IMG/VR virus record: IMGVR_UViG_2617270992_000014
Reading direction: 5' to 3' (one strand)
DNA length: 41,104 bases
Source: a virus
Lineage: Duplodnaviria > Heunggongvirae > Uroviricota > Caudoviricetes
The notes beneath the pieces were generated by a model that did not search any database, was not told the origin of the DNA, and worked only from the letters and a program-made list of their open reading frames with translations. A program made the position numbers and the translations under genes. Positions 40,534 to 41,104 of this stretch are shown piece by piece (positions within the stretch are counted from its first letter, which is position 1; every line of letters starts with the position of its first letter).

Positions 40534-40536
40534 CTG

Positions 40537-40662
40537 ATGATGAAAATAAAAGATATTAAAAAGATATGCAGGCTGGAAAATGGCGCTGTGGATTGTGAGG
40601 TGTTGTTTTTCGGTATGGAAGAGTATTTAGTCGGACACTGCATCGCCGGAAGACATGGATGA
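40537..40662 (+). CDS. Small 41-aa ORF directly after stf; possibly the N-terminal fragment of a split tail-fibre assembly gene
   Basis: Own translation MMKIKDIKKICRLENGAVDCEVLFFGMEEYLVGHCIAGRHG; starts 4 nt after the stf stop; its 3' end overlaps the next ORF, which lies in the +1 frame. Confidence 0.3.
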   Translation: MMKIKDIKKICRLENGAVDCEVLFFGMEEYLVGHCIAGRHG

Positions 40663-41104
40663 GACAGGGCAGCGCATCTGGAAAGAGTTACAGAGCGGCA
40701 AATGGGGCGAAATCGCCCCGTTCACCATTACACCTGAACTTATCGCAGCGGCAAAAGATGCCAAAAAGATGGAAATCGAGGCGTGGCGAGCAGAACAGGA
40801 GGCGAAGGCGTTCACGTTCGAATGGAACGGTCGTACCTGGAATGCTGGCCCCGACTCAATGGCTCGTCTTTATCCGGTGGTAATGGCCGCAAAATCTGAT
40901 ACGGCACGAACCGCCCTTGCGTGGGGTGACGCTGATAATCAACAGGTGAAACTGTCAATGCCGGAACTGGAAGAACTGGCGACAGCAATGGCGCAGGCAC
41001 AGGTTGAGCGCAATGACGAGATTTATCGCCGTCAGCGTGAAATGAAAGAGGATCTGAACAATCTGGAGGATTTGGGTTCAATCCGAGCGTTTGGTATTGG
41101 CTAA
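40655..41104 (+). CDS. Putative tail fibre assembly protein (Tfa-like, position-based)
   Basis: 149-aa ORF immediately downstream of stf; Trp-rich N-terminal half and helical charged C-terminal half; assignment rests mainly on position. Confidence 0.45.
   Translation: MDETGQRIWKELQSGKWGEIAPFTITPELIAAAKDAKKMEIEAWRAEQEAKAFTFEWNGRTWNAGPDSMARLYPVVMAAKSDTARTALAWGDADNQQVKLSMPELEELATAMAQAQVERNDEIYRRQREMKEDLNNLEDLGSIRAFGIG

Follow-up and report, generated by a model that had tools for sequence, protein, structure and literature searches.

A split DUF4376-family gene next to a prophage side tail fibre gene: one gene interrupted by a lesion private to a single draft assembly

Two overlapping open reading frames (ORFs) stand at the right-hand end of the stretch of Caudoviricetes DNA analysed here (the window, 41,104 nt), in a place where a single gene would be expected. 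Do they encode two proteins, are they joined into one by ribosomal frameshifting, or are they the remains of one interrupted gene? The original prediction, which took the pair for a split tfa gene, allowed four readings: a frameshift-inactivated gene, a sequencing error, two genuine genes, or a recoding site. The first two survive the analysis described below, whereas the other two are refuted by it. The best explanation, to which we assign a probability of about 90%, is that one gene of the DUF4376 family has been broken by a lesion private to this assembly, be it a mutation or an error, and that no recoding takes place.

The layout itself is as predicted. The ORF list contains a 41-aa ORF (40537-40662) and a 149-aa ORF (40655-41104) with an overlap of 8 nt, the frame of the second (40655 mod 3 = 2) being +1 to that of the first (40537 mod 3 = 1), and inspection of the sequence confirms that the downstream frame is shut by a TAG at 40628-40630. 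The homologous frame of the 149-aa ORF is open upstream of its ATG, already from 40631, and reads S D T A S P E D M D E T G from there. The lower edge of the interval proposed for a joining event (40631-40662) is straddled by the lesion (40629-40634, see below). The product of the 41-aa ORF is MMKIKDIKKICRLENGAVDCEVLFFGMEEYLVGHCIAGRHG, and that of the 149-aa ORF begins MDETGQRIW; the ATG at 40655 overlaps the upstream stop codon (ATGGATGA, 40655-40662).

The window extends from the stop codon of a lambda-type integrase (1-1119, - strand; PF09003 and PF00589) to the stop codon of the 149-aa ORF, which ends on the last base (41104). In the source contig, the prophage is flanked by potC/potD at its integrase end and by potB/potA at the opposite end, and so splits the potABCD operon (loci L006, 4678-6661, and L104, 11286-13123). 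Upstream of the split gene are gpJ (34103-37498), lom (37566-38165), and an intact side tail fibre gene (38224-40533, + strand; 769 aa; PF08400 phage_tail_N, E 1.1e-72), the presumed client of a chaperone, whose counterpart in L001 is an ORF of equal length. Since J, lom, and stf precede it in this order, the split gene occupies the position of tfa in the lambda reference. It starts 4 nt past the stf stop codon, the position expected of a fibre chaperone, and a gene directly downstream of the fibre gene is likewise present in loci L001-L003 and L087 and in a set of 60 non-redundant loci.

Several side observations concern this region. The Ala/Ser/Thr-rich, repetitive middle of the fibre gene (window 38600-39300) contains long spurious ORFs, both on the opposite strand and in the other frames (one of 347 aa at 38727-39770, - strand, is an example); the same problem, which confuses annotation, is seen in L001-L003 (931-2034) and L006 (1512-3879). 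In relatives, the fibre ORF, though intact, bears the RefSeq tag "incomplete, missing C-terminus", and the calls in the source record fragment the fibre gene. In three loci (L067 1723-3561, L071 1768-3561, and L076 1798-3561), the DUF4376 open frame extends 588-613 codons into tail-fibre N-terminal sequence, a layout reminiscent of fibres with a built-in C-terminal chaperone; fibre and chaperone may be fused in one ORF in these loci, though the layout could equally be a deletion artefact. In a metagenome contig from ENA (L110, NODE_1728, 5,996 nt; region 664-2749), the integrase gene is joined directly to an intact DUF4376 gene by a 404-nt junction, to which the integrase-side flank contributes 158 nt and the other flank ~259 nt, with an overlap of ~13 nt. 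The contig has the look of a close relative in its excised or circular form (attP), suggesting an active phage type and a true right end ~245 nt outside the window.

The family to which the gene belongs is not that of Tfa. The window fragments have no match to PF02413 at E up to 1, nor does the intact clone-mate protein at E up to 10, and the hhalign probability against lambda Tfa is 1.4%; the label "tfa" thus names the wrong family. Instead, the 149-aa ORF matches PF14301 (DUF4376) over its residues 32-136 (55.6 bits against a cut-off of 25, E 8.1e-15), as does the intact clone-mate protein over residues 71-175 (54.8 bits). A search of NCBIfam returned no family for fragment or intact protein. 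The predicted function, help in tail-fibre assembly, fares better than the family name, being reasonable by position and by the literature on DUF4376 proteins. Alteromonas phage V22 needs its DUF4376 protein gp27 for the receptor-binding fibre to be functional (PMC7289586), and the H-fibre of the Campylobacter CJIE1 prophage needs the co-expressed downstream DUF4376 gene (PMC7882524). The chaperones of Alteromonas phages A5 and V22 have been modelled as trimeric caps, in which three N-terminal chaperone strands and the fibre head form a six-strand sheet via chaperone strand 3 (PMC10579305). We regard the gene in the window as encoding a putative chaperone, on the basis of its position, the shared Pfam domain, and this work on distant phages. 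The slot after stf in lambda-like E. coli prophages can hold a DUF4376 protein unrelated to lambda Tfa.

Alignment of the conceptual fusion of the two ORFs to relatives, the check proposed with the original prediction, reveals homology across both. Searching with the fusion recovered 1786 proteins at E <= 1e-5, of which the best 120, as cluster representatives, include the window's own 149-aa ORF and number 119 without it. All 119 of these homologues (best 120 of 1786) are single proteins, 186-195 aa in length, and they cover 97-100% of the fusion; the expectation of a single gene of roughly 190 codons is borne out by these lengths and by the extent of the homology. Profile comparison leads to the same picture: on the 194-position profile phrog_1141 ("tail fiber protein"), positions 3-33 are matched by the 41-aa ORF (E 5e-4) and positions 43-190 by the 149-aa ORF (E 6e-68), while the intact protein P0004 gives a collinear, full-length match (positions 4-190, E 1.7e-84). 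Six complete E. coli genomes carry, in the same place, an intact 564-nt gene annotated as "DUF4376 domain-containing protein" (95.7-97.4% nucleotide identity), followed by potB, potA, and pepT, and a single intact ORF occupies the same position in loci L001-L003, L004, L007, L087, and L089. Judged by these alignments, the two ORFs are halves of one ordinary prophage gene of the DUF4376 family, ~188 aa in length.

The region 40537-41104 (+ strand), which in intact relatives is one ORF of 564-567 nt (187-188 aa), can hence be described as a disrupted DUF4376-family gene for a putative side-tail-fibre chaperone. Its 5' fragment, the 41-aa ORF (40537-40662, + strand), is identified by the ORF list, the phrog_1141 match, and the homologue alignment; according to the latter two, residues 1-31 are the authentic N-terminus, and residues 32-41 (VGHCIAGRHG) are an out-of-frame read-through that stops at a TGA (40660-40662). 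The 3' fragment, the 149-aa ORF (40655-41104, + strand), contains the whole of the Pfam DUF4376 domain.

DNA alignments place the lesion at 40629-40634 (+ strand), where AGTCGG in the window stands against GCCTT in the clone-mates and nearest alleles, i.e. one extra base and three substitutions within six positions. This replacement shifts the frame and creates the TAG at 40628-40630 in the downstream frame. Except for it, the first 176 nt of the gene match the nearest allele, which is found on a metagenome contig with the same potB locus. Compared with L001 (strain MB06234) over 3805 nt comprising the end of J, lom, stf, and the split gene, the window has 40 differences, among which the lesion is the sole indel and the sole cluster of at least four differences per 10 nt; compared with L007, L087, and L089 over 3.6, 10.6, and 2.5 kb, respectively, it is the only difference. 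When the frame is corrected in silico by deletion of one base, the resulting fusion has Ser-Asp in place of the invariant Pro32-Tyr33, part of a Pro-Tyr-Thr (PYT) motif kept in 119/119 homologue representatives (best 120 of 1786). Even a perfect correction of the frame would therefore not restore the conserved protein.

The split is private to one draft assembly, that of E. coli 2-052-05_S3_C1. Among ~15 billion proteins, the exact 41-aa and 149-aa products occur once each, as KDT21540.1 and KDT21535.1 on contig JNNF01000027.1 of this strain, and that GenBank record is their only source. When 5,426 complete E. coli genomes were searched with a 73-nt stretch covering the patch, the six known relatives were the only ones retrieved, all of them without the patch. 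The sister assembly JNOZ01000026.1, from the same sequencing project, carries the intact gene on a contig of almost equal length. Apart from the patch with its four changes, it is identical to the window over 10,565 nt at the right-hand end and to the source contig over a further 4,000 nt; over the left 11,119 nt it has 1 SNP. The comparison took in the first 11,119 and last 10,565 nt of the window. The large terminase protein is too widespread (2,551 blocks) to serve as a probe for the sister prophage. The SNP, the only other difference in the 21.7 kb compared, is at position 2212 (C in the window, T in JNOZ01000026.1), inside an exonuclease VIII-like ORF of 804 aa (1419-3833, - strand).

Further copies from what appears to be the same clone agree with the sister assembly. 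The IMG/VR viral contig L007, at 41,103 nt the length of the window minus one base, has the intact gene and, save the patch, matches the window over its last 3.6 kb (3,567 nt, all that was compared). A Logan read-level reassembly of SRR1186589 is likewise intact and clone-identical over 6.5 kb save the patch, and two further places match in a manner similar to this reassembly. The intact 187-aa protein corresponds to four NCBI accessions, two of them apparently from the same project by their accession prefix. Because the lesion is confined to one draft genome, it is to be regarded as a private mutation or an assembly error rather than a recoding signal. What we have here is an ordinary private lesion in an already known family. 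KDT21540.1 and KDT21535.1, now "hypothetical proteins", are better interpreted as the pieces of one disrupted DUF4376 gene, or as the result of an assembly error, and are unsuitable as evidence for a small gene or a recoding site, a point that matters mainly for annotation hygiene.

How do the other readings fare against these data? Translation of both ORFs as one full-length protein through a programmed +1 (or -2) ribosomal frameshift would agree with the 8-nt overlap and with a summed ORF size equal to that of the intact homologues, and recoding does occur in tail genes of lambda-like phages. Such a signal is nevertheless vanishingly improbable at this site, given that the split is absent from the clone-mates and from all 119 homologues (best 120 of 1786). 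Since the TAG closes the target frame up to 40630, a shift that restores the conserved sequence would have to occur exactly at UAU UUA|G (40624-40630), where, by inspection, +1 re-pairing is impossible both for tRNA-Tyr on UAU and for tRNA-Leu on UUA; the inspected sequence UAU UUA G UCG (40624-40633) contains no slippery sequence. A shift later in the overlap would put VGHCIAGRHG where the conserved PYTASPEDMD belongs, and a perfect one would still yield Ser-Asp for the invariant Pro-Tyr. Neither of two features of programmed frameshifting, a conserved two-frame layout and a slippery site that allows re-pairing, is present. That the locus holds two genuine genes, one for a 41-aa peptide and one for a stand-alone 149-aa DUF4376 chaperone, is extremely unlikely. 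The 149-aa ORF does contain the whole Pfam domain, the start/stop overlap (ATGGATGA) permits translational coupling, and some DUF4376 proteins among the predicted viral structures (BFVD) have only 130-170 aa. However, both products are unique to one assembly, and no stand-alone homologue of ~149 aa other than the window's own, such as the original prediction had named as evidence against a broken gene, is found among the best 120 of 1786. Nor is the ATG of the 149-aa ORF a conserved start, for its Met is present in only 13/119 homologues (best 120 of 1786), the others having Thr or Ser, and the 41-aa ORF follows the family N-terminus for 31 residues before leaving the frame.

We also considered whether the lesion could be real and the gene crippled, with a 149-aa product made by termination-reinitiation at the ATG at 40655 and still partly active as a chaperone, either by itself or helped in trans by the 41-aa peptide. 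The overlap of stop and start (40655-40662) would suit this, the helical body and both hairpins are predicted to lie wholly in the 149-aa part, and the conserved C-terminal part of Mu-type Tfa is thought to drive multimerisation (summarised in PMC7882524). We nonetheless hold it to be very unlikely: the 149-aa product would lack all three N-terminal strands, which are the fibre contact in the Alteromonas models and co-vary with the fibre; inspection of the sequence reveals no good Shine-Dalgarno at a proper distance from 40655; and the proposal presupposes a real lesion. We would give little credence to the further idea of a naturally split chaperone, in which the 149-aa body, reinitiated at ATGGATGA, would work without docking strands or with the 31 residues supplied in trans; if true, it would mean that a DUF4376 chaperone can work with its two modules on different chains.

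Within the preferred reading, that of one gene broken by a private lesion, the choice between assembly or sequencing error and real mutation is nearly even, and we lean slightly to error. A complex six-for-five replacement is unusual as a spontaneous mutation, and no template for AGTCGG was found nearby, in paralogues, or in 5,426 complete E. coli genomes. All three read-level reassemblies of the clone are intact and none gives the split; three is also the number of project assemblies with the allele, an agreement that is only suggestive, as the SRA runs are not linked to strains. In favour of a real private mutation that inactivated the gene, clustered errors are rare in a consensus of many Illumina short reads, the sister assemblies differ also by a clean SNP, and prophage copies of the gene often decay. 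Other broken copies occur among 80 IMG/VR loci, each with its own site and its own lesion: the N-terminal 30 codons are lost in L057, a poly-A run near the gene start is frameshifted in L064 and L078, and L084 has a nonsense codon.

Particular sources of the patch were also considered. A search for a local direct or inverted copy that might have templated AGTCGG (quasi-palindrome, gene conversion) yielded chance 6-mers only. Mis-recruitment of reads from a paralogous DUF4376 gene has no specific support, because TCG GAC cannot derive from Pro-Tyr codons; the DNA similarity to paralogues begins just downstream of the patch (~40635-40664). A diversity-generating or invertible-segment mechanism was rejected, the change being private, the gene the last before the attachment site, and no recombinase or repeat being found there.

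The position of the lesion within the protein can be described on a structural model. The AlphaFold2 model of the conceptual fusion, made with 34 homologues (mean pLDDT 90), has strands at residues 4-12, 18-24, and 31-35 and a helix at 42-52, after which follows a body arranged as helix-hairpin-helix-hairpin-long helix. The lesion falls in predicted strand 3. A sequence-profile search of the PDB gave no match at E up to 10, and Foldseek gave none against the PDB at E <= 0.001. Matches among the predicted viral structures in BFVD were to DUF4376 proteins (130-240 aa) of phages that infect Aeromonas, Pseudomonas, Synechococcus, Enterococcus, and Bacillus, indicating that the fold is widespread.

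The two parts of the protein differ in how they vary with the fibre. Across the 60 non-redundant loci (1770 pairs), identity of the N-terminal 46 aa correlates with that of the C-terminal 150 aa of the upstream fibre (Spearman rho 0.57), the N-terminal mean identity being 0.59-0.61 when the fibre ends are <60% identical and 0.94-0.96 when they are >60% identical. The C-terminal domain, by contrast, has an identity of 0.80-0.89 regardless (rho 0.20 against the fibre C-terminus), and DNA similarity to paralogues starts at approximately codon 33-43. The variable N-terminal 45 residues of the DUF4376 protein thus travel with the fibre tip, and the 60 loci display the combination of a fibre-tracking variable part and a conserved generic part that is expected of a fibre chaperone. 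Although physical linkage alone could explain the co-variation, it is compatible with a protein made of two modules, one for fibre-specific docking and one for generic assembly.

By analogy with the DUF4376 chaperones studied in Alteromonas phages and a Campylobacter prophage, we propose that the variable N-terminal part, with its predicted strands in residues 4-35, would dock on the C-terminal head of its own Stf fibre, that the conserved helical C-terminal body would multimerise, and that the two modules together would bring three fibre chains into register from the C-terminus. The strand with the invariant Pro-Tyr-Thr is a good candidate for a fibre contact. The lesion breaks the frame in predicted strand 3 and removes the Pro-Tyr, and on such a scheme it would part the docking module from the helical body, leaving either a dead gene or merely a faulty record. 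We infer the chaperone function, the docking through the N-terminal sheet, and the phenotype from these analogies; a real lesion would be expected to yield virions that lack side tail fibres but keep infection through the J tip, as in laboratory lambda.

Among known systems, the programmed -1 frameshift of the lambda-like G/GT genes resembles the split in that two overlapping tail-gene ORFs lie in different frames. The window has such a pair, tail assembly chaperones G (27754-28140, PF06222) and T (28152-28442, PF06223), and its G gene ends on an A-run (GTT AAA AAA AAG TAG) that is, by its sequence, the expected programmed -1 frameshift site of lambda-like phages. The same gene pair is present in relatives (L094-L103), and G/GT has a slippery run, whereas the split at 40537-41104 has neither conservation nor a slippery run.

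The closest functional parallel may be the DUF4376 chaperones of Alteromonas and Campylobacter, which, like the gene in the window, have a C-terminal PF14301 domain and are encoded directly downstream of a fibre gene. They are ~190-240 aa in length, and their co-expression is needed for a working fibre (PMC7289586, PMC10579305, PMC7882524). An N-terminal three-strand element is followed in them by a helical body with beta-hairpins, an order that recurs in the model described here. The likeness to gp27 and gp9 is based on the shared Pfam domain and on matches in fold to further DUF4376 proteins; host and phage type are different, and the copy here is interrupted. Lambda Tfa (orf-194) occupies the same slot in the order J-lom-stf-tfa, is of similar size (194 versus 188 aa), and presumably does the same job in side tail fibre assembly, but it is of another family, matching PF02413 (Caudo_TAP) at E 2.8e-43, for which the window protein has no match.

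The split stf of laboratory lambda (orf-401 and orf-314) offers a parallel to the lesion itself: there, as in the window, a frame-breaking lesion in the side-fibre module has led to two ORFs that were annotated separately. Laboratory lambda with the split stf reportedly stays viable through J, the side-fibre module being dispensable, as Hendrix and Duda are said to have found in 1992. The two cases differ in the gene hit and in the kind of change: in lambda, the fibre gene carries a single-base change that was fixed in the laboratory stock, whereas in the window the chaperone gene carries a six-for-five replacement found in one draft assembly.
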